Source of the DNA: an uncultured Gemmatimonadales bacterium
GTDB lineage: Bacteria; Gemmatimonadota; Gemmatimonadetes; Gemmatimonadales; GWC2-71-9
NCBI GenBank assembly: GCA_963815325.1
Contig: CAWFGG010000002.1
Coordinates: 773,472-837,471 of the forward strand
DNA length: 64,000 nt
Reading direction: 5' to 3'
Shown piece by piece: positions 5,753 to 50,812 of the stretch. The notes below the pieces were generated by a model. The model worked only from the letters and a program-made list of their open reading frames with translations, ran no database searches and was not told the origin of the DNA. A program made the translations under genes and the position numbers. Each line of letters begins with the position of its first letter. The stretch's first letter is position 1.

Positions 5753-5779
5753 CGGTAGCCCGGGGGCACGGCTCGCCGT

Positions 5780-7393
5780 TCAGACATGTTCGCGATAGTT
5801 CGGGTCGTACATCATGGACGCGATATGCGCCTGCAGGTCGCTCGGCGCCGGCCCGACCGCCTGGCCCTGCTCGAACGCCACTTGGGCCACGCTCAACGCC
5901 ACAGCAGCGGACACCTGCCGGATCGATTCGAGTGGCGGATAGATCGACCCCTGCTTCAAGAGGTCCTCGTCGACGCTTTCCGCGAGCGTCTTGGCGGCGG
6001 CATGGAACATGGCGTCCGTGACACGGGTCGCGCCCGAGGCAATGACGCCCAAGCCTACGCCCGGAAAGATGTAGGCATTGTTGCCTTGGCCCGGCACGAA
6101 GGTCTGGTCCTGGTAGGTCACCGGATCAAACGGGCTTCCGCTGGCAAAGACCACCCGGCCGTCGGTCCACCGGTAGGCCTCCTCCGCCGTGCACTCCGAC
6201 TTCGAGGTCGGGTTCGACAGCGCCAGGACAATGGGCCGGTCGTTCAGCCGGGCCATGGCACGCAGGATCGGCTCGGTGAACGTCTTCGGCTGCGCTGACA
6301 CCCCCACTAATGCCGTCGGCCCGAGCGCCTCGACCGCACCGAGGAGATCGGGAATGAAGGCGTGGTCATGCGCGAATGGCAGCTTGTGCTCCGCGAGATC
6401 GCGACGCGATGCCACGACCAACCCCTTGGAGTCCACGAACCAACAGCGCCGCATCGCCTCGGCTTCGTCCATGCCCTTGCCCATCATGGCGGAGGCGATG
6501 AGATGGGCGATGCCGGTGGCCGCGGACCCCGCGCCCAGGAACAAGACGGTCTGATCGGTGAGCTTCAAATCGACGATACGGCCGGCCGAGAAGAGCCCAG
6601 CGAGGGTGACCGCGGCCGTACCCTGGATATCGTCGTTGAACATGCAGGCCCGGTCGCGATAGACCTCGAGCAGGTGCACCGCGTTTTGCGTGGCGAAGTC
6701 TTCGAACTGGATGAGGACCTCGGGGAAGACCTCTTGGACCGCCTCGACAAATTCCTCGATGAACGCATCGTACTCCTCGCCCCGCTGCCGATGCTGCATG
6801 AGACCGATATAGAGCGGGTCTTTGAGCAGCTCTTCGTTGTTGGTCCCAACATCGAGCGTGATTGGAAGGCAGCGCGCGGGATCGATCCCGGCGCAGGCGG
6901 AATAGAGCGAGAGCTTCCCGATCGGGATTCCCATGCCCTGCGCTCCGAGGTCGCCGAGGCCCAGAATACGCTCCCCGTCGGTGACCACGATGATGTCGAC
7001 CTTGTCTTCGGGCCAATTCCGCAGCACGTCGCGGATTCTGCCTCGGTCGTTGATCGTGATGTAGAGGCCTCGGGGGCGCCGGAAGATGTGCCCGAACTTC
7101 CGACATGCCTCACCCACCGTGGGCGTGTAGATGATTGGCATCATCTCGCGGATGTTGTCGATCACGGCACGATAGAACAACGTCTCGTTCCGATCCTGGA
7201 GCGACGTGAGGAAGATGTACTTCTCCAGCTCGGACTCTTTGCGGCGCAGGTTCTCCAAGACGCGCCATTGCTGCTCCGCAAGCGTGAAGATGCGCGGCGG
7301 GAGGAGTCCGCGGATCTTCAGCGTATCGCGCTCGGCGTCGGTGAACGCCGTGCCCTTGTTGAGCCGCGGGTCGTGTAGGAGATCTTCACCCAT
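5780..7393 (-). CDS. NAD(P)-dependent malic enzyme
   Basis: ORF 5780..7564. Motifs: LHDPRLNKGTAFT, IYTPTVGEAC, VVTDGERILGLGDLG, FNDDIQGTA, GAGSAATGIA. The start is set at MGEDLL (ATG 7393); an earlier non-ATG start is not excluded. Confidence 0.85.
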   Translation of the reverse strand: MGEDLLHDPRLNKGTAFTDAERDTLKIRGLLPPRIFTLAEQQWRVLENLRRKESELEKYIFLTSLQDRNETLFYRAVIDNIREMMPIIYTPTVGEACRKFGHIFRRPRGLYITINDRGRIRDVLRNWPEDKVDIIVVTDGERILGLGDLGAQGMGIPIGKLSLYSACAGIDPARCLPITLDVGTNNEELLKDPLYIGLMQHRQRGEEYDAFIEEFVEAVQEVFPEVLIQFEDFATQNAVHLLEVYRDRACMFNDDIQGTAAVTLAGLFSAGRIVDLKLTDQTVLFLGAGSAATGIAHLIASAMMGKGMDEAEAMRRCWFVDSKGLVVASRRDLAEHKLPFAHDHAFIPDLLGAVEALGPTALVGVSAQPKTFTEPILRAMARLNDRPIVLALSNPTSKSECTAEEAYRWTDGRVVFASGSPFDPVTYQDQTFVPGQGNNAYIFPGVGLGVIASGATRVTDAMFHAAAKTLAESVDEDLLKQGSIYPPLESIRQVSAAVALSVAQVAFEQGQAVGPAPSDLQAHIASMMYDPNYREHV

Positions 7394-7621
7394 CGAGATT
7401 GTGCTCTTCGCGGGTCGCGATGCGACCGTCTTATTCGCCGCCACGGCGTTTGTCCTCAGGTAATGGATGAAACCGGTGCGCGCCCAACGGGCGCGCTCGA
7501 TCGAGCCGGTCCAAGTTCGCCTTCCCAGTTTGCCGCTCCGGGGGCCGCCCGGCAAGACCGGCAAAACCCCGCCCAGAGCCTGAGGCGCCGGGCGGGGTCA
7601 TGCCGGTTCGGCGCCCCTCGT

Positions 7622-9772
7622 TCAGCGGGTTGCCGGCTGAGCCACCCCCTGCAGCTCGTCGGCGATCCGATCGGCGTCATACACCTTCCGGAGCGCTTCG
7701 ACAATGCCCGCCGAATGGACACTAACCGACCGGGACACCTCGTCGGTGAAAATGAACCGGTTGGGCAGCATTTCGATGTTGCCGTCGAAGATGAGGCCTA
7801 CCACCTCCGCATTGCGATTGATCACCGGGCTGCCCGAGTTCCCACCGATGATGTCGTTGGTCGACACGAAATTGATGGGTGTGGTCAGGTCGAGCCGGTC
7901 CTTGCGGTCCAGCCACCGTTGGGGCAGGTCCCACGGGGGCTGGTAATCGAATTCGGCGGCCCGGCCGAACAACCCATAGAGGCTCGTCTTGTAGGGCGCG
8001 ACCGTTCCGTTCATCGGGTAGCGCTTGACAACGCCGTCACTGATTCGAAGCGTGAACGTCGCATCCGGCGGCAGCGCCTTTCCGTACGCCGCGAAGATCG
8101 CCTGCCCCACGAGCTCGGCGTTGGCCGAGATCGCATCATTGAGGGTCGTGGCCCGGTCCGCTTGCGCGCGGGCGAGCGGCTCGAGCTTCCGAGCCAGCAC
8201 GATCATGGGATCGTTGGACGCCGCAATGGCCTTGGTACCGCCGTCGAGCAGGGCCTTCCGGGCGCCCGCATCGGTCAGGGTGCTGGCATTGATCAGCGCC
8301 TCGGCCGCAACTTCGGGGCTCCGACCACCCAGAATCGCTTCCAGGAACGGGTCGTTGGCCGGGAGGTCTCGCTGGGCTTCACTGAGGAAGCCCGCGAAGG
8401 CGAGCTTGTCGGCCTCGGTATCGATGGGCTGATCGCGCAGGATGAAGCCCTTGACCCGGTCGAGCCCCTCGCCGCGGTACTGCGGCAGCCTGAGCTCATC
8501 GGCCATCGCCGCTTGCGCCGGCCAACGGACGATGCCACCGGCTAGGTTCAGCAGTTGCGACCCGCCGAAGCCGTAATACCGCGCCTCGGTGGCAAAGCTG
8601 GCCAGGTCCTTCTGGGCCTTCGCGATGTTGTCCCAGGCTGGGCCGTACTTCTGCTTGAGTGCCGGGTCGGCATCGATGCGCCCACGGAAGTCGGCTTCGA
8701 AGCGCTGCTTCTTCGCCATGATGCCGGGATCGAGGAGTCCGGTCAGGTAGCCCGTGATCGCCTTGTGGGCGTTCTCGAGACCAAAGATCTGATTCTCATA
8801 CTGACGGCGCGCTTCCTCGCTTGCCTTTGCCAGCTCCCGAGTGACGTCGAGCTGCCGCTCGATGGCGCGGAGCTGCGCTGGATACTGGACATCCCGCAAA
8901 TACTCCATCTGCGCCATGGTGAGGAGCCGCCCCGTCGAGCCCGGGTTGCCGGTGACGAAGACCAGCTCGCCCTCGGCCGCGCCGTTCTTGCTCCACGGGA
9001 AGTAATGCGCCGGCTTGTACGGCTGGCCACCTTCATACACGCGCAGCAGCGTCAGGTCGAGATCGTATCGTGGGTAGGTGAAGTTGTCGGGATCGCCACC
9101 GAAGAAGCTCGTCCGACCCTCTGGAGCAAACACCAACCGGATGTCGCTGAACCGCTTGTAGCGATACAGCGAGTACATACCGCCCTGGTAAAATCGAACC
9201 ACCTGACAGTTGAAGCCGGTGCCGGCCTGGCATTCGTTCTCGATCACCTCGATGACCGAGTCGCGCTGGGCGACTTGCTTGGCCGGTGTGGTGGCGGTAA
9301 CAGCCCCGCGTATCCTGGTCGTGACGTCCTCGATGGACTGCAGCTGGTCCACCCACAGGCCCGGGCAGGCACGTTCTTCCTCCTGCGTGCCCGCGCTGAA
9401 GCCGGTATCCTGGTAGTTGGTGTCCGCCGGCGAGACCGCGGTAATGCAGCCGCGGGAACAGTGGTGATTGGTCATCACGAGCCCGTTATCGGACACGAAT
9501 GAGGACGAGCAGTTTGGCAGCCGCACCGACGCAAGCCGAACCCTGTCCAGCCACGCCTGATCCGGAGCGAAGTCGTACGTCGCCTTCCAATAGTCGAGCG
9601 GAGGGGCGTCGAACGTCCACATCGTCCCAAATTCTTTGATGAATTTCGATTGTGCTGCCGGCTTGGCCTTTGCCTCTGCCTTTGGCGCCTGCGCGGCTGA
9701 GGTGGTAAAGGCTCCCAGGAGCCCTCCAACGGCAAGCAGCATGATAGAACCCAACGACTGAATGCGACTCAT
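7622..9772 (-). CDS. S46 family dipeptidyl-peptidase (DPP7/DPP11-like), secreted
   Basis: ORF 7622..9835 trimmed to MSRIQSLGSIMLLAVGG (signal peptide). Motifs: MWTFD, catalytic-His region VMTNHHC, and Ser motif GGNSGSPVIN. Confidence 0.85.
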   Translation of the reverse strand: MSRIQSLGSIMLLAVGGLLGAFTTSAAQAPKAEAKAKPAAQSKFIKEFGTMWTFDAPPLDYWKATYDFAPDQAWLDRVRLASVRLPNCSSSFVSDNGLVMTNHHCSRGCITAVSPADTNYQDTGFSAGTQEEERACPGLWVDQLQSIEDVTTRIRGAVTATTPAKQVAQRDSVIEVIENECQAGTGFNCQVVRFYQGGMYSLYRYKRFSDIRLVFAPEGRTSFFGGDPDNFTYPRYDLDLTLLRVYEGGQPYKPAHYFPWSKNGAAEGELVFVTGNPGSTGRLLTMAQMEYLRDVQYPAQLRAIERQLDVTRELAKASEEARRQYENQIFGLENAHKAITGYLTGLLDPGIMAKKQRFEADFRGRIDADPALKQKYGPAWDNIAKAQKDLASFATEARYYGFGGSQLLNLAGGIVRWPAQAAMADELRLPQYRGEGLDRVKGFILRDQPIDTEADKLAFAGFLSEAQRDLPANDPFLEAILGGRSPEVAAEALINASTLTDAGARKALLDGGTKAIAASNDPMIVLARKLEPLARAQADRATTLNDAISANAELVGQAIFAAYGKALPPDATFTLRISDGVVKRYPMNGTVAPYKTSLYGLFGRAAEFDYQPPWDLPQRWLDRKDRLDLTTPINFVSTNDIIGGNSGSPVINRNAEVVGLIFDGNIEMLPNRFIFTDEVSRSVSVHSAGIVEALRKVYDADRIADELQGVAQPATR

Positions 9773-16225: not shown

Positions 16226-16795
16226 GTGGCACTCGTGATCGAATCGCGCAAGGGCTTCACCCTGGTCGAAGCGGTGACCGTGATGGTGGTGATGGGCCTC
16301 ATGCTTGCCATCGGGATCCCCTACCTCCGGGTCAGCCCGTACCAGGAGGTGCGGAGCGCCGGGCTGCAACTGGCGCGTGACCTCGAGGCGGTCCGCACCC
16401 GCGCCCTCGCAACTCGCAGCACCGCCCGGATCGTGTTCGATCCTTCGGGCGGGAGCTACACCGGGTTCCTCGACGACGACCGGGACGGGGTGCTCACCGA
16501 GAGCTCGGTGGAACAGCGCGCGCTGCGCGCGTTTGCCGGCAATCGTGCGCTGGGAAGCGGAGTCACCTTCGGAAGCGGCGTGGCCGGCCCGGTGCCGAAC
16601 GACACCGCGACGGGGCCGATCACCTTCATCAATGACCGGCTGGAGTTCGACGGCCGCGGGGTGACCACACCGTTCGGCACCCGTGGGGTGGTCTACTTGG
16701 TCAACCAGCGCGAGTCGACGGCGGTCGCGGCCGTGGCCGTGTCGGGCGCCGGGTCGCTCAAGCTCTGGGTCTACCGGGAGGGCGCATGGCAATGA
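16226..16795 (+). CDS. GspH/FimT-family minor pseudopilin
   Basis: Prepilin-type N-terminus SRKG/FTLVEAVTVMVVMGLMLAI with Glu+5, and an LARDLEAVRTRAL helix typical of FimT/GspH. Confidence 0.75.
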   Translation: MALVIESRKGFTLVEAVTVMVVMGLMLAIGIPYLRVSPYQEVRSAGLQLARDLEAVRTRALATRSTARIVFDPSGGSYTGFLDDDRDGVLTESSVEQRALRAFAGNRALGSGVTFGSGVAGPVPNDTATGPITFINDRLEFDGRGVTTPFGTRGVVYLVNQRESTAVAAVAVSGAGSLKLWVYREGAWQ

Positions 16796-17169
16796 GGAAG
16801 GATGGCGGCTTCAGCCTGATCGCGGTGTTGGTTGCGATCGTGTTGCTCTCGATCGGACTGCTCGCGATCTCACGCGCAAGCACGCAAGTCCTGGCCATGC
16901 ATACGTCCGCGGCCTCGCGCTCGGCAGGGCTCGCGGTGGCCCGAGCCCACATGGAGACCCTCCGGAGCCAAGATCCGGCCACCATCGTCTCGCAAAGTGA
17001 GGTCGTCGTGAATGCCGAAGGCCAGCTCGACGCCTACGGCGCTTTCCACCGGACGGTGGTCGTCGACAGTGTTTCCCACAACTTGAAGGCCATTCGGATT
17101 CGGGTCACGTGGCCGCGCGCCAGCGCGCCCGTCGAGCTCGTCACGATGGCCTTCTTCAGCGTCGAGTAG
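16786..17169 (+). CDS. PilV-like minor pilin
   Basis: N-terminus MAMRKDG/GFSLIAVLVAIVLLSIGLLA. Ala replaces the usual Glu+5. The start overlaps the upstream stop. Confidence 0.7.
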   Translation: MAMRKDGGFSLIAVLVAIVLLSIGLLAISRASTQVLAMHTSAASRSAGLAVARAHMETLRSQDPATIVSQSEVVVNAEGQLDAYGAFHRTVVVDSVSHNLKAIRIRVTWPRASAPVELVTMAFFSVE

Positions 17170-40076: not shown

Positions 40077-41051
40077 ATGGATTCAAAACTCAAGGGCCGC
40101 GATTTCATCACGACTCAGCACTGGACCGTCGACGAGCTCGAGACCCTGTTCGCCCTGGCGGCGGAGCTCAAGGCTGCCAAGCGCAGCGGGAGGTCGACGC
40201 CAGTGCTTACGGCCAAGACGCTCTACATGATCTTCTTCGACGCGTCGACCCGCACCCGCAACTCGTTCGAGACCGGCATGACCCAGCTGGGTGGGCACGC
40301 CATTTACCTCTCGCCCGACAAGATGCAGATCAGCCACGGCGAGAACGCGCGCGACACGGCCAACGTCCTGTCGCGCTACGGCGACGGCATTGCCATCCGC
40401 CACTGCGCCTACGGCGAGGGCAACGCGTACCTGAACGACGTGGCCAAGCACGCCAGCATTCCGCTGCTCAACATGCAGTGCGACGTCTATCACCCGTGCC
40501 AGATCCTGGCCGACTACCTGACCATCCGGGAGAAGTTCGGCGACACCAAGGGGCTCAAGCTCGGCGTGTCGTGGACCAGTGCCCCGAACTACGTCCGGCC
40601 GCTCTCGGTGCCGCAGAGCCTGATCCTGATGATGCCGCGGTTCGGCATCGACGTGACGCTGGCCTACCCGCCCGAGTTCAAGCTCATGCCGCACATCGAG
40701 GCGCAGGCCAAGGCCAACGCCAAGGCGGCGGGGACCAAGTTCGAGATCTCCCATGAGTTCGACGACGCGTTCCGCGACGCCGACGCGGTGGTCCCCAAGT
40801 CGTGGGGCCCGTTGGTCACCACCGAGGACACGAAGCAGGGCTTGGCCCTGATCGAGAAGTACCCCACCTGGCGCACCGGCATGGATCACATGCGGCTCGG
40901 CAAGAAGCACCTGATCTACATGCATCCCCTCCCGGCCGACCGCGGCCGCGAGGTGACCGACGAGGTGATCGACGGGCCGCAGTCGGTGGTGTACGACGAG
41001 GCCGAGAACCGGCTCCATGTGCAGAAGGCGCTCATGGCGCTGACCATGTAG
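40077..41051 (+). CDS. ygeW: YgeW-like knotted carbamoyltransferase (short form)
   Basis: 324 aa. Motifs: FFDASTRTRNSFE, HGENARDTA, NMQCDVYHPCQ, LSVPQSL, VPKSWGP, YMHPLPADRG. These parallel the E. coli YgeW motifs as I recall them. Confidence 0.7.
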   Translation: MDSKLKGRDFITTQHWTVDELETLFALAAELKAAKRSGRSTPVLTAKTLYMIFFDASTRTRNSFETGMTQLGGHAIYLSPDKMQISHGENARDTANVLSRYGDGIAIRHCAYGEGNAYLNDVAKHASIPLLNMQCDVYHPCQILADYLTIREKFGDTKGLKLGVSWTSAPNYVRPLSVPQSLILMMPRFGIDVTLAYPPEFKLMPHIEAQAKANAKAAGTKFEISHEFDDAFRDADAVVPKSWGPLVTTEDTKQGLALIEKYPTWRTGMDHMRLGKKHLIYMHPLPADRGREVTDEVIDGPQSVVYDEAENRLHVQKALMALTM

Positions 41052-41063
41052 CGTGGTGACGTC

Positions 41064-42297
41064 GTGAGCGGCTTCCGGTTTCGCTGCACCGAGTGCGGCA
41101 CGGCGTATGGCGAGGACGACGTCCGGCTCACCTGTCCCGCGTGTGCCGGCAAGCAGGAGCCCGGCGGCGTCACCCGCGGCGTGCTCGAGGTGGAGATCGA
41201 CGAGCTGCCGACCCGTTGGCCCGATGTACCTCCGTCCCATCCCGATTTCCTGACCGCGTTCCTGCCGATTCCGTCGGCCGAGCATGTGCCGCCGCTTCCG
41301 GTCGGCGGGACGCCGCTACTACCGGTGCCCGAATTGCGTCGTGCACTCGGCATGCCGCGGCTCTGGCTCAAGGACGATACCCGAAACCCCAGCGGATCGA
41401 CCAAGGACCGGGCATCGCTTTTGGTGGTGGCCAAGGCCAAGCAGTACGGCTACCACACCGTGGCCGCGGCGTCCACGGGCAATGCCGCGACCGCGCTCGC
41501 CGCCGTGTCGGCCGCCGCCGGTACCCGAGCGATCCTGTTTGTGCCGGCCGCAGCACCCGAGGCCAAGCTGGTGCAGATGTTGAGCTATGGGGCCACCGTC
41601 TTGCCCATCGACGGCAACTACGACGACGCGTTCGAGCTGTGCCTCGCGGCCTGTGAGGCGTTCGGCTGGTACAACCGGAACACGGCGCTCAATCCGTTCA
41701 CCATAGAAGGAAAGAAGACCGCGGGTCTCGAGATCGCGCTGAGTATGGCGCCCGACGTGCCGGACGCGGTGCTGGTGCCAACGGGCGACGGGGTCATCCT
41801 GTCCGGCGTGGCCAAGGGATTCGCCGACCTGGTGCGATGCCGGGCTGATCGATCGCGTGCCGCGGATGATCGCGGTCCAGCCCGAGGGCGCGGCGGCGAT
41901 CGTCACCGCCCTGAAGGAAGGCAGCGAGACCATCACACCCGTGCCGGGTGCACACAGTGTGGCCGATTCACTCACGGTGGAGGCGCCGCGAAACGCGCTT
42001 CAGTGTCTCCGGGTCATTCGCGCCTCGGGCGGGAGCGGCGTCGCCGTACCCGACGCCGCTATCCTCGAGGCCATTCCCCGCCTCGCCGGCCTCAGCGGCG
42101 TCTTCGCTGAGCCGTCGGCGGCGGCGGTGTTGGCGGGGCTGGAGGTGGCGGTCGAGGAAGGATTGGTGGAGCAAGGCGAGCGCGTGGTGTTGCTGGTGAC
42201 GGGCACCGGGCTCAAGGACGTAGCAGCGGCGGCGCGAGCGGTGGAGCGGCCGGTACCGATTCCACCGACGCTCGAGGCTGTGGCGGCGAGGATCTGA
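41064..42297 (+). pseudogene. threonine-synthase-like PLP enzyme with N-terminal zinc ribbon, apparent frameshift near 41838
   Basis: FRCTECGTAY...CPACAG, then SGSTKDRAS (PLP Lys), STGNAA. ORF 41064..42110 derails after GFADLVR. ORF 41857..42297 continues (D)AGLIDRVPRMIAVQPEG...LLVTGTGLKD. Confidence 0.75.
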
Positions 42298-42304
42298 GGT
42301 TCTC

Positions 42305-43444
42305 ATGATGCCAAGAGTCATGCAGGGCTACAGTGGGCCTGTCCTCGTTCTGGCCATGCTGCTGTCAGCGTGTCGGACTCCCGACAACGCCTCACCCGCC
42401 AGCACGATCTGGCAACTCGACCCCGAACCCACCCTGACCCTCACCAGCGACCGCCTCCCCGAGGGTCACGAACTGAACGGCATCTATGCGGCGCTCGAGC
42501 TACCCGACGGCTCGCTCCTCATCGCCAACTCGGGCGCCCACGAGTTGCTCCTGGTCGACTCCGTCGGCCAATACCTGCGCACCATCGGCCGGAGCGGCCA
42601 GGGGCCCGGCGAGTACTCCGACAACCTCCAGCTGTTCCACGGCGCGGGCGACACGGTGGTGGTGTACGACGGTGCCGCCCTCCGGTGGACCTTCTTGACG
42701 CCTTCCCTGGAAGTGGCACGCACCGTAGTCGAGTACAACGCCGACCTGCCGAGCCCGAGCTGGCTGTTCCTGGGATCGCTGGTGATGGATGCCAAGATTC
42801 GGCAGAGCCGGGAGCGGGCCCGCGAGATCCTGACGCGCGTCCGGGCGCGCGACCCGGGCTTCGAGCACCTGCTCATCGCGAGACAGGACGCCCAGGGAGC
42901 GGTCTGGGTGCGGCGGCTCGACGACGCCCGGGAGTGGCAGGTGTACCAGGGCGGAGACACGACCTACGCCCGGGTCACGCTGCCCGCGGGCTTGGACCTG
43001 ATCGCAATCGGACGGCAGACGATCGTGGGCGTCACCCGCGACAGTCTGGGCGAGGAGCAAGTCCAGGCGCACCGCCTCGCCCGGCCGCCGGGCAGCAGCA
43101 GCCCCACAATCGTCGCGGAGGCGGAAGCCCCTGCCCCGGCGGCGGCGGCCGAGCAGCCGCCGCTGGCCCGAGAGCTGGTGAAGATGGTGGTGGCGCAGGA
43201 GGGCTACTACTCGGACCACGCCCGCTATGCCAACGTGGCCGACAGCCTCCGGGTTCGTATCGAGGGAGGGGGCCGGCTCTTCATTCTCTATGCCGACGAG
43301 CGCCACTGGGCCGGCGTGGCCGTGATGCCCGGGACCGGCCTGACCTGCGGCATGGCGGTGGGGTATCCGACGCCGGCCAGTTGGCAGGAGGGAGTCCGGT
43401 CTGCGACAGGTAAGGGGGTAAGTCGGAAGCGAGGAGAAGAGTGA
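42305..43444 (+). CDS. lipoprotein, possible beta-propeller fold
   Basis: Lipobox LAMLLSAC, and SGAHELLLVDSVGQYLRTIGRSGQGPGEY (NHL/6-blade-like). The last ~12 codons (GKGVSRKRGEE*) are encoded by the GA-rich repeat. Confidence 0.6.
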   Translation: MMPRVMQGYSGPVLVLAMLLSACRTPDNASPASTIWQLDPEPTLTLTSDRLPEGHELNGIYAALELPDGSLLIANSGAHELLLVDSVGQYLRTIGRSGQGPGEYSDNLQLFHGAGDTVVVYDGAALRWTFLTPSLEVARTVVEYNADLPSPSWLFLGSLVMDAKIRQSRERAREILTRVRARDPGFEHLLIARQDAQGAVWVRRLDDAREWQVYQGGDTTYARVTLPAGLDLIAIGRQTIVGVTRDSLGEEQVQAHRLARPPGSSSPTIVAEAEAPAPAAAAEQPPLARELVKMVVAQEGYYSDHARYANVADSLRVRIEGGGRLFILYADERHWAGVAVMPGTGLTCGMAVGYPTPASWQEGVRSATGKGVSRKRGEE

Positions 43445-43810
43445 GGAGTGAGGAGTGAGGAGTGAGGAGGCGGAAGGACGGCTCGCAAGCGTCGCGCGAG
43501 CGACGCCGTGCCGAGCAGCGGCTTCAGCCGCGAGGGGAGGCGGAAAGACGGTAAGTCGGGGAAGGCGGGAAGAGTGGGGAGTGAGGAGGGAGGAGTAAAA
43601 GGAGTGAGGAGTAAGGAGTGAGGAGGCGGAAGGACGGCTCGCAAGCGTCGCGCGGCGACGCCGTGTCGAGCAGCGACCGAAGGAAGTCCTTTAGGGCGGC
43701 TTCAGCCGCGATAGAAGAGACGGAAAGACGGGAAGGCGGCAAGGACTGATCGGCGCCTGTGAGGAGTAGAGAGTCAGGGATTGGGGAGTGGGCGGGACTA
43801 GGGAATACCC
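43417..43810 (+). repeat. tandem array (about 2.5 copies, 133-180 bp units) of a GA-rich plus double-hairpin element
   Basis: Unit 1 is 43417-43549, unit 2 is 43550-43729, and a partial unit runs to ~43810. Each unit has GGTAAGTCGG..GAAGAGTG(A/G)GGAGTGAGGAG heptamer-like purine tracts. Hairpin 1 is GCTCG-caa-GCGTCGC-gcg(a)-GCGACGC-cgtg(c/t)-CGAGC (43481-43516; 43637-43671). Hairpin 2 is CGGC-ttca-GCCG (43519-43530; 43697-43708). Confidence 0.8.
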
Positions 43811-44028
43811 TAGTGGGCGTCCTCGTGCTGTTGACAGCGCATGCCTGACACGGCAGTGTACCCAGAGAGCAGCGCAAGAGGGTACGACGATGAGCGTGCG
43901 AAGGACCGAGTGGCGACCTATGGACCAGTGCTTCGACTCTGGCCAGGCCGCCACTCGGCTTTTCAGTCTCCGTGGTGTATGCCGTACCGTCGGCGCTCAG
44001 CCCTCTTGCGCCAATTGACGGACAAGAA

Positions 44029-44440
44029 GTGGTAGCCTGCCGAGGTGTGGCTCTTGCGGTATTGGTGGTGATGTCCGGGTGTGCCGTCCCGAATCAGAGT
44101 CCCCACGCCTTGATAGTCGAACTCGACATCTTCAGTGGCCGCCCCAACCCCACCTGGGAACTCTCCAAGGAGCAGGCAGACGAGTTCGTGTCGCGGCTCA
44201 CGAATTTGCCACGGTGTGACCGGGTACCCAGCATCGGCGGCCTGGGCTACCGAGGATTCGAGATCCGCAATCTCGAAGGACGTGCCGATCTTGCAACACG
44301 GATTCGGGTCCTCAAGGGCTTCATCTACCTGATCGACGACGATCAGGCCGCGATGCTTCGAGGACGAGCAGGGGATCGAACCCTGGCTCATCGAGCAGGC
44401 CGAGGCACGTGGACTCGAAATACCAGGACGCGATAGATAG
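44029..44440 (+). pseudogene. small lipoprotein, DIFSGRPNP-motif family (paralogue A), apparent frameshift at ~44356
   Basis: Lipobox LAVLVVMSGC, then ALIVELDIFSGRPNPTWELSKEQADEFVSRL...GLGYRGFEIRN...LIDDDQAAM | FEDEQGIEPWLIEQAEARGLEIPGRDR*. The second part is in the +1 frame; the uncorrected frame is Arg-rich junk. The start is uncertain (43972/44029/44047). Confidence 0.5.
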
Positions 44441-44471
44441 GGCCGATACATCTCAGCATGCGAGGTGCACC

Positions 44472-44864
44472 GTGAAACTCAAGATCACCGTCGACGTGTT
44501 CAGCGGACGCGAGAATCCAGTCATCGAATTGGACCATCGCGCGAGCCTCCGGGCCCTGGATCGGCTGCAGCCCGACGAGGAGCTGTCGGCACGGGAGCGG
44601 AAGGTCCCGGAGGGGATGCTGAGGTACAGGGGCTTAGTGATCGAACAGATAGGCAGGGGAACAACAAGACTGCCAAGTTTCGCCTCGTCGATGGCAAGCT
44701 GCTCGGCCCGGACCTGGCTCATCGCGCAGCAGACCAAGGCTTCGAAGCCTACATCGGCGAACGTCGTCCGTATGCGACAGAGCCCCCGTCGCTTTAGCGA
44801 CGAGGTCCTGCCGCAGTTCTGCGGCTTCATGATCGTGATGCATGGACACATCAAGATCTCGTAG
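44472..44864 (+). pseudogene. small protein, DVFSGRENP-motif family (paralogue B), apparent frameshifts at G4 run 44656-44659 and C5 run 44783-44787
   Basis: VKLKITVDVFSGRENPVIELDHRASLRALDRL...MLRYRGLVIEQIGRG | NNKTAKFRLVDGKLLGPDLAHRAADQGFEAYIGERRPYATEPP | RRFSDEVLPQFCGFMIVMHGHIKIS*. It parallels paralogue A motif for motif. Confidence 0.45.
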
Positions 44865-44875
44865 GAGATACCACA

Positions 44876-45058
44876 ATGCCAAAGGCGCCACAGGCGGAGT
44901 TTCTGACCATCGCCGCCATCCGGAAGTCGCGCGGCCGGCGAGAAATCGAGTACCTGTTCAACGAGAAGCAACAGATCTTCACCTTCCGGTCGAAATCCAA
45001 GACGGCCGCGGCAGCGGCGGAGCGGCTCGAGGAGGCTTCGAGAAGAAGTGGCCGGTAA
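44876..45058 (+). CDS. small basic protein (60 aa) translationally coupled to the glutaminase gene
   Basis: ATG preceded by AGGAGA. Sequence MPKAPQAEFLTIAAIRKSRGRREIEYLFNEKQQIFTFRSKSK. Its stop (45056-45058) lies 11 nt inside the next ORF. Confidence 0.5.
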   Translation: MPKAPQAEFLTIAAIRKSRGRREIEYLFNEKQQIFTFRSKSKTAAAAAERLEEASRRSGR

Positions 45059-45830
45059 GGCCCGGCTCGAAATGACGAAGGGCTTCATCCGGCGCATCTC
45101 GAGGTCGACCGCCAAGGAAGTCGCTCAATTCGAGCGCAAGCGCACCGTCCTGGCCGATGCCGCACGGCCGCGCCGGATCGAGGTCGCCAAGATCGATCCG
45201 ACCACCTTCAACATCGTCGACCACTACCTCAAGCACCCGGTCTTCCGGCTCTGCCGCCGCGTGGTGCCGAGCTATCAGAGCGCCAAGACCATCTTCGACT
45301 TCTGCGCCAAACAATCGTGTCACCTGCCGGGGCCGTACGACATCTCACCCTGTATCCCGTTCCAGTACGTGCCGGACGGCTGCTACGCCCGGGCGCACAA
45401 GATGCGGTGGATCATCACCACCCGGTACCGCTACTGCTGCGACAAAGTGTTCAGCTTTGCCAATCAAGACAACGACCGGCTCGCGGTCCAGGCCAACAAG
45501 TGGGGCGGCTGCTGTATCACGTGGTGGTATCACGTGGCGCCGCTCATCCGCGTGCGCATCCGGTTGTCCAAGCTTCGCAACCTGAGCATCGTCCTGGCCA
45601 TGGTGATCGATCCCAGCATGTTCGACAAGCCGGTCCTGCTCAGCACCTGGCTGTCGGCCCAGGAGAACGCCGCCTGCCATCCCAACGCCCACGTGTCGAT
45701 GTACTCGATCCAGCCAGGCTCGGCCTATTGGCCGGCCAGCTACGACGGCACCACGTTCGGCACCGATCCGACCTACACGTTGACCGATGGGACACTCACC
45801 TCGTACCGGAACCTGGTGTCCTGCCCGTGA
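45048..45830 (+). CDS. protein-glutamine glutaminase (protein deamidase) family, no signal peptide
   Basis: SPCIPFQYVPDGCYARAHKMRWII (catalytic Cys), GGCCITWWYHVAPLI (His) and MVIDPSMF (Asp) align with my recollection of the Chryseobacterium proteolyticum enzyme (SPCITFRYPVDGCYARAHKMRQIL, CCVAWSYHVAILV, IIDPSLF). The N-terminal ~95 aa are polar and basic, with no hydrophobic leader. Confidence 0.75.
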   Translation: MAGKARLEMTKGFIRRISRSTAKEVAQFERKRTVLADAARPRRIEVAKIDPTTFNIVDHYLKHPVFRLCRRVVPSYQSAKTIFDFCAKQSCHLPGPYDISPCIPFQYVPDGCYARAHKMRWIITTRYRYCCDKVFSFANQDNDRLAVQANKWGGCCITWWYHVAPLIRVRIRLSKLRNLSIVLAMVIDPSMFDKPVLLSTWLSAQENAACHPNAHVSMYSIQPGSAYWPASYDGTTFGTDPTYTLTDGTLTSYRNLVSCP

Positions 45831-45947
45831 GGAGGAGACGCAAGGACATGGGGCTGCCGTGAACGGGACGAGCCGAGCCGGCCGAGAGCAGCCCCATTAC
45901 CGGATCATGCAGGTAGCGCAGGTCCGAGAACGGGAGGGGCAGACCAC

Positions 45948-46135
45948 GTGGGAGTGGTGTTCCTCGAGTCGGCCCGGTTCTATCGCCTCATGAGGTCGAA
46001 TGCGACGTTTGCAGAATCGTACGAGCTGCTGCAAGCGGCTCAGGAGCAGCTGAACTGCTCACGATCCGATTGCCGTCGATCGAGAGTGACATCATCGAGG
46101 GGGTATCCGCCGGGGTGCGTGAGGATGAGGAGTGA
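45948..46135 (+). pseudogene. stand-alone homologue of the protein-glutaminase pro-peptide (62 aa), apparent frameshift at ~46050
   Basis: GTG 45948 follows GGGAGGGG. Sequence GVVFLESARFYRLMRSNATFAESYELLQAAQEQ | ELLTIRLPSIESDIIEGVSAGVREDEE*. It resembles the pro-region segment I recall as KVSFMLTAQFYEIKPTKENEQYIGMLRQAVKNESPVHIFLKPNSNEIGKVESASPEDV. The uncorrected frame ends in Arg/Ser junk. Confidence 0.4.
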
Positions 46136-46150
46136 GAGGGGTCGCGGCGG
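46121..46150 (+). repeat. short GA-rich GAGGAGTGAG tract at a gene 3' end
   Basis: GAGGATGAGGAGTGAGAGGGGTCGCGGCGG. It supplies the (frame-corrected) TGA stop at 46133-46135. Confidence 0.5.
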
Positions 46151-46211
46151 TTGGTTTTCGAGTTGATGCCTGCTATCTAGCGCGCGCATCGGTTGCGTGG
46201 GGAGGACGAGC

Positions 46212-46557
46212 GTGTCGATCCTGACTAAGCGCGTGTACGAGGAGGCCTCCTCGGCCGACGGCCGTCGTATCCTCATCGATCGGTTGTGGCCGCGCGGAAT
46301 CTCCAAAGCCACTGCCCGGGTCGACTACTGGGCCAAGGAGGTGGCACCGTCCACTGAGCTCAGGCAGTGGTATCGCCACGACCACGACAAATGGCCTGAA
46401 TTCAAACGCCGCTACTTCGCGGAATTGGAGGCCGAGCCCGAGGCCGTGCAGGCGCTCCGGCGATCGCATGGGGCGCGGCAGGACGACCCTGGTCTACGGC
46501 TCGACGGAGCGGATCTACAACAACGCAACCGCGCTCAAGGAATTCCTCGAGCGGTGA
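46212..46557 (+). pseudogene. DUF488 family protein with an apparent frameshift near 46475
   Basis: [70 protein letters not shown] is classic DUF488. The C-terminus continues in another frame as [26 protein letters not shown]. Confidence 0.8.
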
Positions 46558-46620
46558 CACAAGAGTGAGGAGTATGGAGCAAGGAGGGAATCGGGAAATT
46601 TGGAGCAGGGACCCGACTTC
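46558..46620 (+). repeat. short GA-rich tract (GAGTGAGGAGTATGGAGCAAGGAGGGAATCGGGAAATTTGGAGCAGGGA)
   Basis: It lies directly 3' of the DUF488 stop and shares the GAGTGAGGAGT core with 43441-43470 and 50177-50200. Confidence 0.5.
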
Positions 46621-46642
46621 CTGGCGACACCCTACCGAGCAA

Positions 46643-46908
46643 CTACCCACCGGCGATACCGCCGATGACGAGGAACGGCTCGCTGCCCGATGCAGTCGGG
46701 CAGCGGGGCGTCCGGCGGTTGGTGGGACAGATCCTCCTCACAGGCAAAGAACCTGAGGAACGGCCGACGCTCCCGGGTGCCGTGGTCGCGGATCGTCCCG
46801 CGCAGCATCGGATAGCGGGCCTCGAGCGCGTCGAGCACGGCGCGCGCCGTCGGCGGTCAGAATGAACGCGCCCTTCCTCGTGCCGACCAATACACGGACC
46901 TTGCTCAT
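46643..46908 (-). pseudogene. MoaD/ThiS-like ubiquitin-fold protein ending in GG, two apparent frameshifts (~46845, ~46690)
   Basis: Three minus-strand frames join: [23 protein letters not shown] | [52 protein letters not shown] | [15 protein letters not shown]. Confidence 0.6.
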
Positions 46909-46977: not shown

Positions 46978-48180
46978 TCAGGGCTTCACTTCGTACGCCG
47001 TTGGAAACGGGCTCGCCGGATACGGACCGATCTTGTCGACGGTGTACTCGCCGGCCCACCGGTCCGGTGGGGAGTCGGATGCCTCGACTTCGTTGCTGGC
47101 CGGCCGGAGGCCGTGCTTGAGATAGGCGATGAGCGCCCACAAGTCCTCGTCCGCCATGTGGCGGACGGCGACCCATGGCATGATGGGGCCCAGGTAATCC
47201 GGCTCAGCCGGAAAGTTGTTCTGGTCTGCGGCAATCTCCATGTTTGTAGCGTCGCTCGGCCGGAGTCCGTAGCGCAGTGCGTTGAAGATCTGGCGGTCGG
47301 TGTAACGGCCCATACCCGTGGCATCGTCCGGTGTCAGATTACGCGGGCGCAGAATGAAGCAGGGTCCAGCCTCCGCCTCCCCACACGCCCCGATCGGGAA
47401 GGCATCACTCGGATCCCTAACGCCGACGAGCCAGCCGTCCGCCGCCGGGCTCGACCCCCCCCCGTGACAGCCGCCGCAGTCGTGCTGGATGGCCACTTGC
47501 CTGCCCCGGAGGACCTGCGCCCGATCAACGCCCGCCGGCGGTTCGGTCTCGTGTGCCGTCGGAAACGGGACGGCAGGCAGCGTGCCGATCTCCTCAGGCG
47601 TATACGCACCCGCCCAGAAATCGGGTGGCCCCTCGCTGTCTTCCACCTTGTGGCTGACCGGCGCCACACCGCGCTTCAGGTACGCGGCGATGGCCCACAG
47701 GTCTTGGTCGGGCATATGTCGCCAGGCCGGCCACGGCATCGGCGGCGCCAGGTACTTGGGGTTCACCGGGAAGTTCCCTTCGCCGGGAGTGGTGGAGGTG
47801 ATCTCCACGTCCGCCGTCTCGCCGGGACGCAGTCCATAGCGGAGCGAGTTGAAGATCTGGCGCTCGCTGAAGCGGCCCATGCCCGTGACGTTGTCCGGCG
47901 TCAGGTTGCGGGGCCGGGTCCGGAAGGGACCGATCAGGAACTCCTGATCCGGCCGCATCATGCCGGCCACCCAACCCTCCTGCCCGGGATCGAAGCTCCC
48001 ATGGCACAGGCTGCACGCGTGCTCCAGCACGAGCTGGCGACCGCGGAGCAGCTGCGAGGGGTCTGCCGGGCCGTCCGCCACTTCCCCTGGCCTGCCGGTA
48101 AATGCTGCGACTACCGCCACCGCCGCCACGATCGCGGGTACCGCCACCAACGGACGGATCCACCAAACGCTGCGCTTCAT
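46978..48180 (-). CDS. dihaem c-type cytochrome (internally duplicated), membrane-anchored or secreted
   Basis: Two CxxCH sites (CSLCHG, CGGCHG), each followed by RPRNLTPD..TGMGR...RQIFN(S/A)LRYGLRP...MPW...RHM.D.DLWA(I/L)(A/I)AYLK. The N-terminus is hydrophobic. Confidence 0.8.
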   Translation of the reverse strand: MKRSVWWIRPLVAVPAIVAAVAVVAAFTGRPGEVADGPADPSQLLRGRQLVLEHACSLCHGSFDPGQEGWVAGMMRPDQEFLIGPFRTRPRNLTPDNVTGMGRFSERQIFNSLRYGLRPGETADVEITSTTPGEGNFPVNPKYLAPPMPWPAWRHMPDQDLWAIAAYLKRGVAPVSHKVEDSEGPPDFWAGAYTPEEIGTLPAVPFPTAHETEPPAGVDRAQVLRGRQVAIQHDCGGCHGGGSSPAADGWLVGVRDPSDAFPIGACGEAEAGPCFILRPRNLTPDDATGMGRYTDRQIFNALRYGLRPSDATNMEIAADQNNFPAEPDYLGPIMPWVAVRHMADEDLWALIAYLKHGLRPASNEVEASDSPPDRWAGEYTVDKIGPYPASPFPTAYEVKP

Positions 48181-49892: not shown

Positions 49893-50180
49893 ATGAGTCG
49901 ATCCCTGATCAAGCAGCCGAGCGCCGTGGTTCCGCTGGTCCTGTCGAGCGCGGCCCTGGCCCTGGTGCTCGGTCACGCGGCCCTGTTCGGCGTGGTCCAT
50001 GAGGCGGACGAGGGAACCGCCGCCCATATCTTCCAGCTCCTCATGGCTGCCCAGGTCCCGGTCGTGGCCTTCTTCGCCATCAGGTGGCTGCCGCGGGCTC
50101 CGCGGCAGGCATTCCAGGTGCTGGTGCTGCAGGCCGGCGCCGCGCTCGCGGCATTTGTCGCCGTCTTCTTCCTCACGTGA
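49893..50180 (+). CDS. small membrane protein (95 aa)
   Basis: GGGAGG precedes ATG 49893. Three hydrophobic segments. The stop TGA 50178-50180 is the first TGA of the GA-rich tract. Confidence 0.5.
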   Translation: MSRSLIKQPSAVVPLVLSSAALALVLGHAALFGVVHEADEGTAAHIFQLLMAAQVPVVAFFAIRWLPRAPRQAFQVLVLQAGAALAAFVAVFFLT

Positions 50181-50340
50181 GGAGTGAGGACTGAGGAGTA
50201 AGGAGCGGGGAGTAGGAGGACGAGAGAAGGAGCGGGGAGAGGAGTAGGGAGTGGGGTGTGCGGAGTGAGGAGTGGAGAGGAGACGCGCGGGAAGCAGGAC
50301 GTGGGCAGTTGTGGAGATTAGGGATGGAGGTGGGTAGGTT
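50177..50340 (+). repeat. ~160-nt purine-rich (C-poor) tract built from GTGAGGA/GAGTAAGGAG-type motifs
   Basis: GTGAGGAGTGAGGACTGAGGAGTAAGGAGCGGGGAGTAGGAGGACGAGAGAAGGAGCGGGGAGAGGAGTAGGGAGTGGGGTGTGCGGAGTGAGGAGTGGAGAGGAG... It is related to the purine part of the 43.4-kb repeat but lacks its hairpins. Confidence 0.75.
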
Positions 50341-50404
50341 AGTTGGTCGGTAACTGGTTCAACCAGACGGGATCGCACAGCATATCTCACAACGATGCTC
50401 GCAC

Positions 50405-50812
50405 ATGAACCAATCGATCATTCATGTGGCGCTGGTTGTTCGCGACTACGACGAAGCCATCGAGTTCTTCTGCCACAGACTGCATTTTACGCTGGTCGAA
50501 GACTCCTACCAGCCCGAGCAGGACAAACGCTGGGTCGTCGTCGCTCCACCCGGCTCCCGCGGCACCAACCTGCTGTTGGCTCGAGCCTCGACCCCGGAGC
50601 AGGCTGCGTTCATTGGCCGCCAGACCGGTGGCCGGGTGTTCTTGTTCCTCCAGACCGACGACTTTAGGCGTGACTACGATGCGATGCGCTCTGCCGGCAT
50701 TCGCTTCGTCAGGAAGCCGATCAAAGAACCGTACGGCACGGTGGCGGTGTTCGAGGATCTGTACGGGAATCTATGGGACCTGCTCGAGCCGACGAAGCAG
50801 GAGGCCACCTAG
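50405..50812 (+). CDS. VOC (glyoxalase/bleomycin-resistance/dioxygenase) family protein
   Basis: 135 aa. IIHVALVVRDYDEAIEFF...PYGTVAVFEDLYGNLWDLLE. Confidence 0.8.
   Translation: MNQSIIHVALVVRDYDEAIEFFCHRLHFTLVEDSYQPEQDKRWVVVAPPGSRGTNLLLARASTPEQAAFIGRQTGGRVFLFLQTDDFRRDYDAMRSAGIRFVRKPIKEPYGTVAVFEDLYGNLWDLLEPTKQEAT

Follow-up and report, generated by a model that had tools for sequence, protein, structure and literature searches.

In many bacterial genomes, no long simple repeat is more common than the heptamer microsatellite. The stretch analysed here (hereafter the window) is 64 kb of contig CAWFGG010000002.1 from an uncultured Gemmatimonadales bacterium, with a G+C content of 61-70%, and between 43.4 and 50.3 kb its plus strand carries tandem arrays of the heptamer GAGTGAG at or beside the stop codons of genes. 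What are these tracts, and why do they recur at gene ends? The locus is a compact natural experiment, with arrays in register with stop codons, three open reading frames (ORFs) caught by them, and a gene block inside an array which can be reconstructed. We think it probable that the tracts are hypermutable heptamer microsatellites, or long simple sequence repeats (LSSRs), which are anchored at stop codons and act as recombination patches. (GAGTGAG)n belongs to an already described kind of repeat of unknown function and is not a new system; the features worth following are its register with stop codons across phyla and the arrays as junctions of cassette rearrangement.

Heptamer arrays and the genes that end in them

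Period-7 arrays were called in the 64-kb window with Tandem Repeats Finder (TRF). The arrays and the features directly attached to them are as follows.

43411-43438, plus strand: purine-rich octamer-like lead-in (GGTAAGGG/GGTAAGTC/GGAAGCGA...), starting at the native beta-propeller TAA
43439-43469, plus strand: heptamer array of 4.4 perfect GAGTGAG copies, left half of a split ancestral array (TRF, synteny)
43572-43625, plus strand: second heptamer array, 7.4 period-7 copies of GAGTGAG/GAGTAAG, within a duplicated super-unit of ~155 nt (TRF, spacing 156)
46121-46143, plus strand: right half of the split ancestral array, GTGAGGATGAGGAGTGAGAGGG (synteny)
46563-46590, plus strand: short degenerate heptamer array after the DUF488 stop
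49893-50180, plus strand: gene for a conserved 95-aa membrane protein (homologues)
50170-50183, plus strand: perfect 14-nt palindrome, TCCTCAC followed by GTGAGGA (read from the sequence)
50177-50274, plus strand: main heptamer array, unit GTGAGGA/GAGTGAG, ~14 degenerate copies (TRF, sequence, composition)
50218-50242, plus strand: 25-nt segment GGACGAGAGAAGGAGCGGGGAGAGG, specific to the window relative to two 98-99% identical assemblies (alignment, TRF period 27)
50275-50340, plus strand: degenerate tail of the tract, rich in G/T and lacking a clear 7-nt period (sequence, TRF, composition)

The repeat unit GAGTGAG, which can also be written GTGAGGA, is composed of TGA and GGAG. An earlier note on this DNA had placed the motif at four positions on the plus strand; all four are real, and a fifth array, 43572-43625, had been missed. 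The 50.2-kb array comprises 14.4 period-7 copies with 68% matches and contains a 27-nt super-period at 50186-50244, while the patches at 46121-46143 and 46563-46590 are weaker and degenerate. The decamer GAGTGAGGAG, allowing up to one mismatch, was matched 18 times in the window as compared with 5.04 +/- 2.19 times in shuffled sequence, and none of 100 shuffles reached 18. Sixteen of the 18 matches fall within 43.4-50.3 kb, all sixteen on the plus strand. As in LSSRs, the window arrays are tandem repeats of a 5-11-nt unit occurring above chance frequency, and all five lie in non-coding DNA downstream of stop codons.

With respect to composition, the 164 nt from 50177 to 50340 consist of A41 C11 G90 T22 (80% purine). 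The C-poverty that had been described for this tract is borne out: the window median is 52 C per 160 nt, no stretch of that length is poorer in C than this one, and no other has 20 C or fewer. Stop codons are present in all three plus-strand frames, and the minus strand has one stop only. The heptamer repeat had been taken to extend through ~50340; its period is clear up to ~50274, but positions 50275-50340 are simply G/T-rich and still C-poor. The same 50.2-kb tract is carried by two independent assemblies (loci L001 and L002) and is therefore no assembly artefact.

Arrays next to genes in the window start between -6 and +5 nt from a stop codon, and the stops that had been assigned to them (43442-43444, 46133-46135, 46555-46557/46566-46568 and 50178-50180) are correct as coordinates. 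The TGA at 50178-50180, which ends the gene for the 95-aa membrane protein, lies in the first unit of the 50.2-kb array. Since nearly all members of this protein family, among the best 120 of 2617 relatives, are 95 aa long, the position of this stop is ancestral. The gene's final codons and the first repeat unit are reverse complements of each other, and the resulting palindrome at 50170-50183 is, judged from its sequence, a possible seed of the array. The periodic part of the array ends ~130 nt, and its degenerate tail ~65 nt, before the start of the VOC gene that follows, so the array is not the VOC ribosome-binding site. For the remaining window arrays the distance to the next gene is 60-500 nt.

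Three ORFs in the window are ended by TGA codons of an array, as was expected from the proposal that any ORF entering a tract would be terminated. The first belongs to a six-bladed beta-propeller protein, which is 379 aa in the window and 364-370 aa in homologues, where it ends in ...WQEG(V/A)PVC(D/E)(R/K) before the stop. One C has been lost from a CCC run near 43396, and the frameshifted ORF passes the native TAA at 43411-43413 to end at the first array TGA, 43442-43444. The latter had been read as the stop of the gene; it ends the frameshifted reading only, and the repeat-encoded C-terminal tail that had been proposed for the product of 42305-43444 is real and 11 residues long. A 96%-identical homologue in another assembly also enters the repeat region, through a different change. 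The second is the DUF488 gene, for which Pfam profile matches stop at residue 90; the typical C-terminus continues in another frame to the native stop TGA 46555-46557, and the frameshifted reading is terminated by the array TGA at 46566-46568. The array 46563-46590 starts 5 nt past the native DUF488 stop, a position which is conserved in L375 and L376. The third is a small ORF (orthologue L060 6003-6350), which, once frame-corrected, ends at TGA 46133-46135 inside the heptamer patch 46121-46143. After this patch, GTCGCGGCGGTTGG... is the conserved upstream region of DUF488.

Four genes within 5 kb require frame correction, namely those for the PALP enzyme, the beta-propeller protein, the small ORF and DUF488. 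The sites are at ~41850-42110, ~43396, ~46040-46060 and ~46470-46480, the exactly located one being the C lost from CCC, and the PALP/threonine-synthase-like gene is split into ORFs 41064-42110 and 41857-42297. Instead of marking pseudogenes, these frameshifts may reflect homopolymer errors in a long-read assembly.

Instability and gene order among relatives

Orthologous loci were compared over about 160 kb of lineage DNA, and both presence/absence and length polymorphism of the arrays were found. L001 and L002, 98-99% identical to the window, have the same 50.2-kb tract minus exactly 25 nt (window 50218-50242), and this indel is the sole difference over the 230-nt spacer. The additional segment, GGACGAGAGAAGGAGCGGGGAGAGG, is an imperfect duplicate of the preceding ~27 nt. 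In relatives with 91% protein identity, the 95-aa gene ends in TGA followed by a degenerate heptamer tract of ~50 nt and a different downstream gene. In others, at 89-92% identity, it ends in TAA or TAG with no array; these have the same upstream genes, yet another downstream gene, and carry ttccttacgTAA or tttctcaccTAG at the position of the palindrome. In L123 and L129, nucleotide homology with the window breaks off exactly at the stop codon 50178-50180; in L125 and L126 it covers the first 32 nt of the array.

In L123 (4441-4510) and L129 (3442-3469), which lack the 50.2-kb array, the next gene, encoding an alpha/beta hydrolase, has its own GAGTGAG array of ~70 nt. This array fills the whole intergenic gap, with the stop codon inside it and the next start 1 nt after it.

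At the 3' end of the beta-propeller gene, octamers and/or heptamers directly follow the stop in 6/6 relatives (66-96% protein identity), and among these the architecture varies widely, with 2 to 7 or more heptamer copies. Variation of copy number or length between close relatives, as described for LSSRs, is therefore seen here as the 25-nt indel, the range of 2 to 7+ copies and the presence or absence of whole arrays.

The arrays also coincide with changes of gene order. L375 and L376 have the beta-propeller gene, one array, and then DUF488 directly. By Blastn, window 40804-43469 corresponds to L376 1-2656 and window 46119-46744 to L376 2635-3263, so that in L376 the two window flanks share 22 nt, which lie within the heptamer array. 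Therefore the following segment of the window sits within an ancestral array, of which 43439-43469 is the left half and 46121-46143 the right half.

43470-46127, plus strand: inserted 2.65-kb segment with module-A composites (described below) and ~4 small genes (Blastn synteny)

This inserted cassette includes a gene for a Gln_deamidase_2 protein (45048-45830). The tracts had been suggested to be stop cassettes which insert themselves at gene ends; in the sole case that can be reconstructed the opposite was found, in that the gene block lies inside a pre-existing array. The genome of L374/L060 has an 87%-identical cassette on the contig that also carries its beta-propeller gene, ~14 kb further downstream, and this cassette is likewise bounded by co-oriented arrays. 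The left junction in the window is the expected product of a deletion between two direct arrays of the L374/L060 arrangement. Gene content between the beta-propeller and 95-aa genes exists in three versions in three relatives, and every locatable junction between the arrangements falls in an array.

In L374 a further ~3.1 kb with three hypothetical genes (4916-8034) lies between the PALP and beta-propeller genes. These two genes are adjacent in the window (42299-42342), and no repeat array is visible at that junction.

Of 32 array patches in the Gemmatimonadota loci, 27 follow a gene of their own orientation and are in sense to it, although the patches are partly orthologous and represent ~14 independent sites. 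The earlier note had described the window arrays as lying on the coding strand with a stop codon at their start or a few nt away; this is correct for the window and holds in the related loci too.

The account we favour explains these observations as follows. Arrays would arise and change length by replication slippage and by unequal or ectopic recombination, in DNA that is untranslated from the stop codon onwards. Sense-oriented arrays would be tolerated, as translation entering an array would stop within 7 codons (21 nt) in any frame, and the G-rich mRNA strand would give an unstructured, nearly C-free RNA offering neither a fortuitous ORF nor a C-rich Rho loading site; on this account the arrays would have no dedicated function. 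Many co-oriented copies throughout the genome would then be substrates for recombination between loci, by which gene blocks may be inserted, deleted or exchanged with junctions inside arrays. The pattern of junctions is observed; the recombination that would produce it is deduced from it.

Several points weigh against this account. Six relatives, the most distant at ~66-70% protein identity, have kept arrays at one and the same gene end, and such persistence exceeds the lifetime usually expected of a neutral microsatellite and could reflect selection for presence. A cis-acting function in RNA would likewise predict that arrays begin strictly at the stop codon and are strongly biased to the sense strand, as they are in this lineage. 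Recombination through arrays is read from arrangements of sequence, and the arrays might instead have been produced at repair junctions. Gene calls in the foreign loci come from a crude script based on ORFs and third-position G+C, and the lineage bias is drawn from only the ~14 independent Gemmatimonadota sites.

Should the arrays be recombination patches or post-termination RNA elements, they would explain gene-order shuffling and operon insulation in a poorly studied phylum. If they are neutral products of slippage, they are still markers of hypervariable regions and a source of assembly breaks, as well as of mis-annotated C-terminal tails (SEE, EE or GEE before the stop) in metagenome-assembled genomes.

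The unit in other phyla and among described repeats

A 21-mer of three GAGTRAG units was found at at least 120 genome loci in many phyla, as compared with ~2 expected by chance in 596 Gb, so the tract is not merely a local product of slippage, an outcome that had been raised as a possible refutation. Hosts include Planctomycetota, Cyanobacteria, Bacteroidota, Clostridia, Campylobacterota, several proteobacterial classes, Acidobacteriota, Chloroflexota and Gemmatimonadota. These loci were selected by the repeat pattern itself, and the counts that follow refer to the matches listed. Where a co-oriented upstream gene lay within 300 nt, 41 of 43 arrays start between -13 and +32 nt from its stop. 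All ten upstream genes tested (10/10), among them those for QueA, EF-Ts, RF2, NadC and GDP-mannose dehydratase, are real, with Pfam domains reaching the native C-termini. In 18 of 41 cases the stop shares the register of the array, where 1/7 would be expected (binomial p = 4e-6).

With respect to orientation, 41 arrays are in sense within 60 nt after a stop, 19 are antisense within 60 nt before a start, and 21 lie inside antisense ORFs. An exclusive sense bias across phyla was thus not found among these matches, and in this sample the bias is specific to Gemmatimonadota; the association with strand that had been put forward holds there (27/32) but is not exclusive across phyla (41/19/21). No array (0/126) lies inside a sense ORF, in part a built-in result, as the unit itself carries a stop. 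Elsewhere, a minority of arrays end at Shine-Dalgarno (SD) distance from the next start.

The three-frame stop had been offered as the cause of the recurrence of the unit. In viral contigs, three perfect units were found at 25 loci for TGAGGAG, 28 for TCAGGAG, 25 for TTAGGAG, 9 for TAAGGAG and 10 for TGGGGAG, and permutations of the same composition gave 9 (TGGAGAG), 8 (TAGGAGG) and 11 (TGAGAGG). The unit TGAGGAG is therefore modestly favoured and not unique. That the stop-less TCAGGAG reaches 28 loci against 25 leans against the proposed cause, and likewise against our own candidate idea of a combined stop and SD seed, although TCAGGAG is often coding. Indeed, 19 of 34 (TCAGGAG)n arrays in viral contigs (L323-L349) lie inside sense ORFs and probably encode 7-residue peptide repeats of SGVRSQE-like type, which makes them a poor control for stop-less units. 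Over 715 kb of unrelated metagenome, four period-7 arrays were found, in two loci, as compared with three in the 64-kb window; the distribution is sporadic and lineage-enriched.

Two further observations were made on arrays outside the lineage. Inverted pairs, in which a G-rich (GTGAGGA)3-5 array is followed by a 15-150-nt spacer and a complementary C-rich array, are a frequent arrangement in AT-rich viral contigs and bacterial genomes (L272 7783-7928 and 10598-10743; L265 3998-4170; L271 7709-7881; L269 1050-1246; L257 268-330 and 630-690; L042 6378-6560; L025 6463-6600). The L042 spacer contains two convergent terminator-like hairpins, and L265 and L271 hold the same inverted-pair element in opposite orientations. 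GAGTGAG arrays are also often situated at the very end of contigs in short-read assemblies (L003, L015, L018, L020, L027, L038, L039, L114, L120), which suggests that they break assemblies and are multi-copy in those genomes.

A functional account would make the arrays cis-acting RNA elements which follow stop codons, shield the mRNA and safeguard downstream gene expression; we judge it unlikely, although it is the main rival. An SD-like AGGAG every 7 nt together with GTG and TGA forms mini-ORFs (GTG AGG AGT GAG GAG TGA), readable directly in the sequence, which would hold or re-load ribosomes and provide fail-safe termination, while the C-free stretch (11 C in 164 nt at 50.2 kb) would block the loading of Rho. 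Consistent with this are the sense orientation and the start at the stop codon in this lineage, the 18/41 stops in array register across phyla, and the fact that several relatives keep arrays at the ends of the beta-propeller and DUF488 genes although the array sequence turns over. The array moreover fills the whole intercistronic gap and ends at SD distance in L121, in L123/L129 and in the AtuA-type operon of L152. A scan of the array-bearing spacers of the window found no promoter or terminator sites, which agrees with such a role but is weak evidence, the scan being of sigma-70 and intrinsic-terminator consensus only. Set against this, the 50.2-kb array is missing behind orthologues at 89-92% protein identity, neither copy number nor sequence is conserved, and the VOC start lies ~65 nt past the tract, so that the array does not serve as its ribosome-binding site. 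In other phyla 19 arrays are antisense just before starts (plus 21 ambiguous), and one RNA mechanism cannot cover both situations because the same unit stands in sense after stops and in antisense before starts.

A more ambitious version combines this function with recombination, and we consider it distinctly unlikely. Arrays of (T[GA]AGGAG)n in register with stops would be a convergent, cross-phylum class of post-termination elements which double as DNA homology patches for integrase-independent cassette exchange. At the RNA level they would supply a fail-safe stop in every frame, ribosome-retaining SD/GTG/TGA mini-ORFs and a Rho-proof C-free spacer; if true, Gemmatimonadales would possess a RecA-type counterpart of the integron. 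The window does resemble integron cassette arrays, in that co-oriented small genes are each followed by a repeat and cassette content differs between close relatives. However, attC sites are imperfect inverted repeats recombined by IntI, whereas the window arrays are direct tandem repeats without fold-back, and they fold no better than shuffled sequence. No integrase was found among the proteins scanned around the arrays, a scan which did not take in the whole window.

We return to the reading of the arrays as stop-anchored microsatellites, which places them among repeats already in the literature. Long simple sequence repeats with 5-11-nt units were described in prokaryotes by Mrazek, Guo and Shah 2007, as cited in PMC4679880 and PMC4692102; according to PMC4679880, heptamers are the most abundant class in many prokaryotes and polymerase slippage was proposed. 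As far as these citing papers convey, LSSRs share with the window arrays the tandem heptamer, a mostly intergenic location, variable copy number, a sporadic phylogenetic distribution, occurrence in large free-living genomes, and slippage as the proposed origin. In Xanthomonas and Nostoc, Rehm et al. 2015 (PMC4692102) described the G-rich heptamers GGGAATC and GGGGA(C/T)T. On the coding strand these are found no more than 50 bp from a stop, and on the non-coding strand they precede a start; they differ in length among close relatives, form inverted pairs and have no established function. Our arrays are similarly non-coding, with the 5' end of the G-rich strand abutting the ORF (-6 to +5 nt from a stop in the window, within 60 nt of a stop or start cross-phylum), and have inverted pairs and variable length. 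Unlike GAGTGAG, which has GG only and carries a stop codon and an SD-like core, the units of Rehm et al. have G3-4 tracts, prefer four copies and form quadruplexes in vitro; they were also reported from regions of increased genomic stability, whereas the window arrays stand at synteny breakpoints. The TAACTGA repeats of marine Beggiatoaceae, Cyanobacteria and Bacteroidetes (MacGregor 2015, PMC4679880) lie just upstream of start codons in three phyla, and translational roles were proposed for them. They too are TGA-containing, intergenic tandem heptamers in distant phyla, but they are located a few nt before start codons and lack an SD-like core, while the window arrays start at stop codons, 65-200 nt away from the next start, and none overlaps the ribosome-binding position before a start. 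In the literature searched we did not find the unit GAGTGAG, a Gemmatimonadales host, registration with stop codons or a link to cassette rearrangement, and no paper with the exact-repeat 14-mer GAGTGAGGAGTGAG was found in the searchable literature.

The composite at 43.4-43.8 kb, DNA structure and protein binding

Downstream of the native TAA of the beta-propeller gene, the octamer-like lead-in is followed by heptamers, module A, octamers, heptamers, a second module A and octamers, so that the composite at 43.4-43.8 kb is a ~155-nt super-unit in tandem duplication. Its parts, beyond those listed above, are the following.

43469-43533, plus strand: module A, a double hairpin of ~65 nt, GGCGGAAGGACGGCTCGCAAGCGTCGCGCGAGCGACGCC...GCGGCTTCAGCCGCGA (5 copies in 3 genomes)
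43534-43572, plus strand: octamer array of GGCGGAAA / GTCGGGGA type (TRF; L374, L375 and L376 have octamers of this kind after the orthologous stop)
43625-43711, plus strand: second copy of module A, with an internal insertion of ~23 nt
43718-43778, plus strand: octamer array (43718-43743) and degenerate heptamer patch (43759-43778) (TRF)

The two hairpins of module A are GCGTCGC-GCGA-GCGACGC and GCGGC-TTCA-GCCGC. Its five copies are spread over three loci in three Gemmatimonadales genomes: two in the window, two in L060 (2058-2115 and 2187-2244) and one on the minus strand of L152 (~650-715). Every copy is directly 3' of a heptamer array and 5' of GGCGGAAA-type octamers, and the L152 composite separates two neighbouring genes of an operon, the first of them AtuA-like, with its TGA in the first unit.

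This composite raises the question of whether the heptamers belong, as one module among several, to a mobile or dispersed mosaic which inserts at gene 3' ends, resembling repetitive extragenic palindromes and bacterial interspersed mosaic elements (REP/BIME) or a miniature transposable element, with the module A double hairpin, the octamers and sometimes module B (described below) as its other parts. We find this quite improbable for the arrays as a whole. The constant order around the five module A copies, the placement of the L152 composite between two operon genes and three copies of module B in two genomes all speak for a mosaic, and a subterminal hairpin beside a short specific flank recalls IS200/IS605-type and REP elements. 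Like the REP/BIME of enterobacteria and pseudomonads, the composite consists of dispersed intergenic modules arranged in mosaics after gene ends which could serve as recombination substrates. Unlike them, the heptamer arrays are non-palindromic and show no fold-back; it is module A that has hairpins, and it accompanies only some arrays. Most arrays are without it (46.1, 46.56 and 50.2 kb in the window; L374, L375, L376, L377 and L126), and the heptamer unit is present in many phyla in its absence. When the module-A 18-mer GGCTCGCAAGCGTCGCGC, a pattern too short and too GC-rich for the purpose, was scanned against metagenomes, the first 120 matches comprised 119 chance matches in coding DNA and one true module A, that of L152. 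No transposase, including one of the REP-associated tyrosine transposase (RAYT) type, was seen near the arrays, the window not having been searched in full. Only the composites with module A qualify as a REP/BIME-like mosaic, and module A itself could be an element of that kind or a miniature mobile element.

Purine-rich octamer arrays (GGCGGAAA, GTCGGGAA, GGCGGGTG) share the strand of the heptamers at window 43534-43572 and 43718-43743, L374 9114-9146, and L060 2253-2293 and 6350-6419, and in several relatives it is octamers, not heptamers, that directly follow the beta-propeller stop. Module B, a conserved intergenic motif of ~100 nt (...GGGTCTTCTGCTGNGACCATCGAACC...CCGCTTGTGAGGAGTG), lies between octamers and a heptamer patch. 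Of its three copies in two genomes (L060 2327-2352 and 6424-6449; L125 1856-1881), two are just upstream of an orthologous gene of 309-313 aa and one is elsewhere.

Structure in RNA was considered separately. Folding energies compared with shuffles gave z = +1.27 for 43420-43800 and z = -0.30 for 50150-50410, and Rfam, at the gathering threshold and at E<=1, returned no relevant match in the composite or in the 50.2-kb region. A structured non-coding RNA, an attC-like hairpin and a terminator were dropped as candidates, both regions folding no better than shuffles.

It is very improbable that the tracts act through non-B DNA structure (G-quadruplex (G4) or triplex/H-DNA), modulating transcription or replication at gene ends. 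Such a role was proposed for the GGGNATC repeats of Xanthomonas and Nostoc (PMC4692102), whose positional rule our arrays share. The G-rich strand and the G3-4 runs that had suggested quadruplex or triplex potential do exist in the 50.2-kb tract, where G4Hunter peaks at 1.96 (50229-50260). However, a value of 1.5 is exceeded at ~30 other sites of this GC-rich window, 50177-50340 contains no canonical G4 motif (G3+, loops <=12 nt), and the unit has GG rather than the G tract of at least three per unit of the G4-forming heptamers, the perfect array 43439-43469 being without any G3. A T every 7 nt interrupts the purine run, which on the sequence would disfavour H-DNA.

Binding of a GGA-recognizing protein of CsrA/RsmA type, or of S1 or cold-shock proteins, with the array as a sponge, is scarcely credible, even though a GGA motif recurs every 7 nt and CsrB-type small RNAs carry many 7-nt CAGGAUG-like repeats. 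A binding-protein hypothesis was put forward for TAACTGA repeats by MacGregor (PMC4679880), yet here, in contrast to CsrB/RsmZ sponge RNAs, the GGA motifs are not presented in the loops of stable hairpins, there is no promoter or terminator consensus of the arrays' own and no Rfam match, and the arrays are dispersed at many gene ends rather than forming one small-RNA gene.

Two repeats of another kind were encountered within coding sequence. In the window, the minus-strand gene at 46978-48180 contains a 116-nt direct repeat (47234-47349 versus 47801-47916; 76% identity, 567 nt apart), which reflects a duplication of the cytochrome c domain inside a 400-aa dihaem-type cytochrome gene. In L374, a large minus-strand gene carries coding tandem repeats at 16335-17113, one of 81 nt present 7.5 times with 97% identity and one of 96 nt present 2.6 times.

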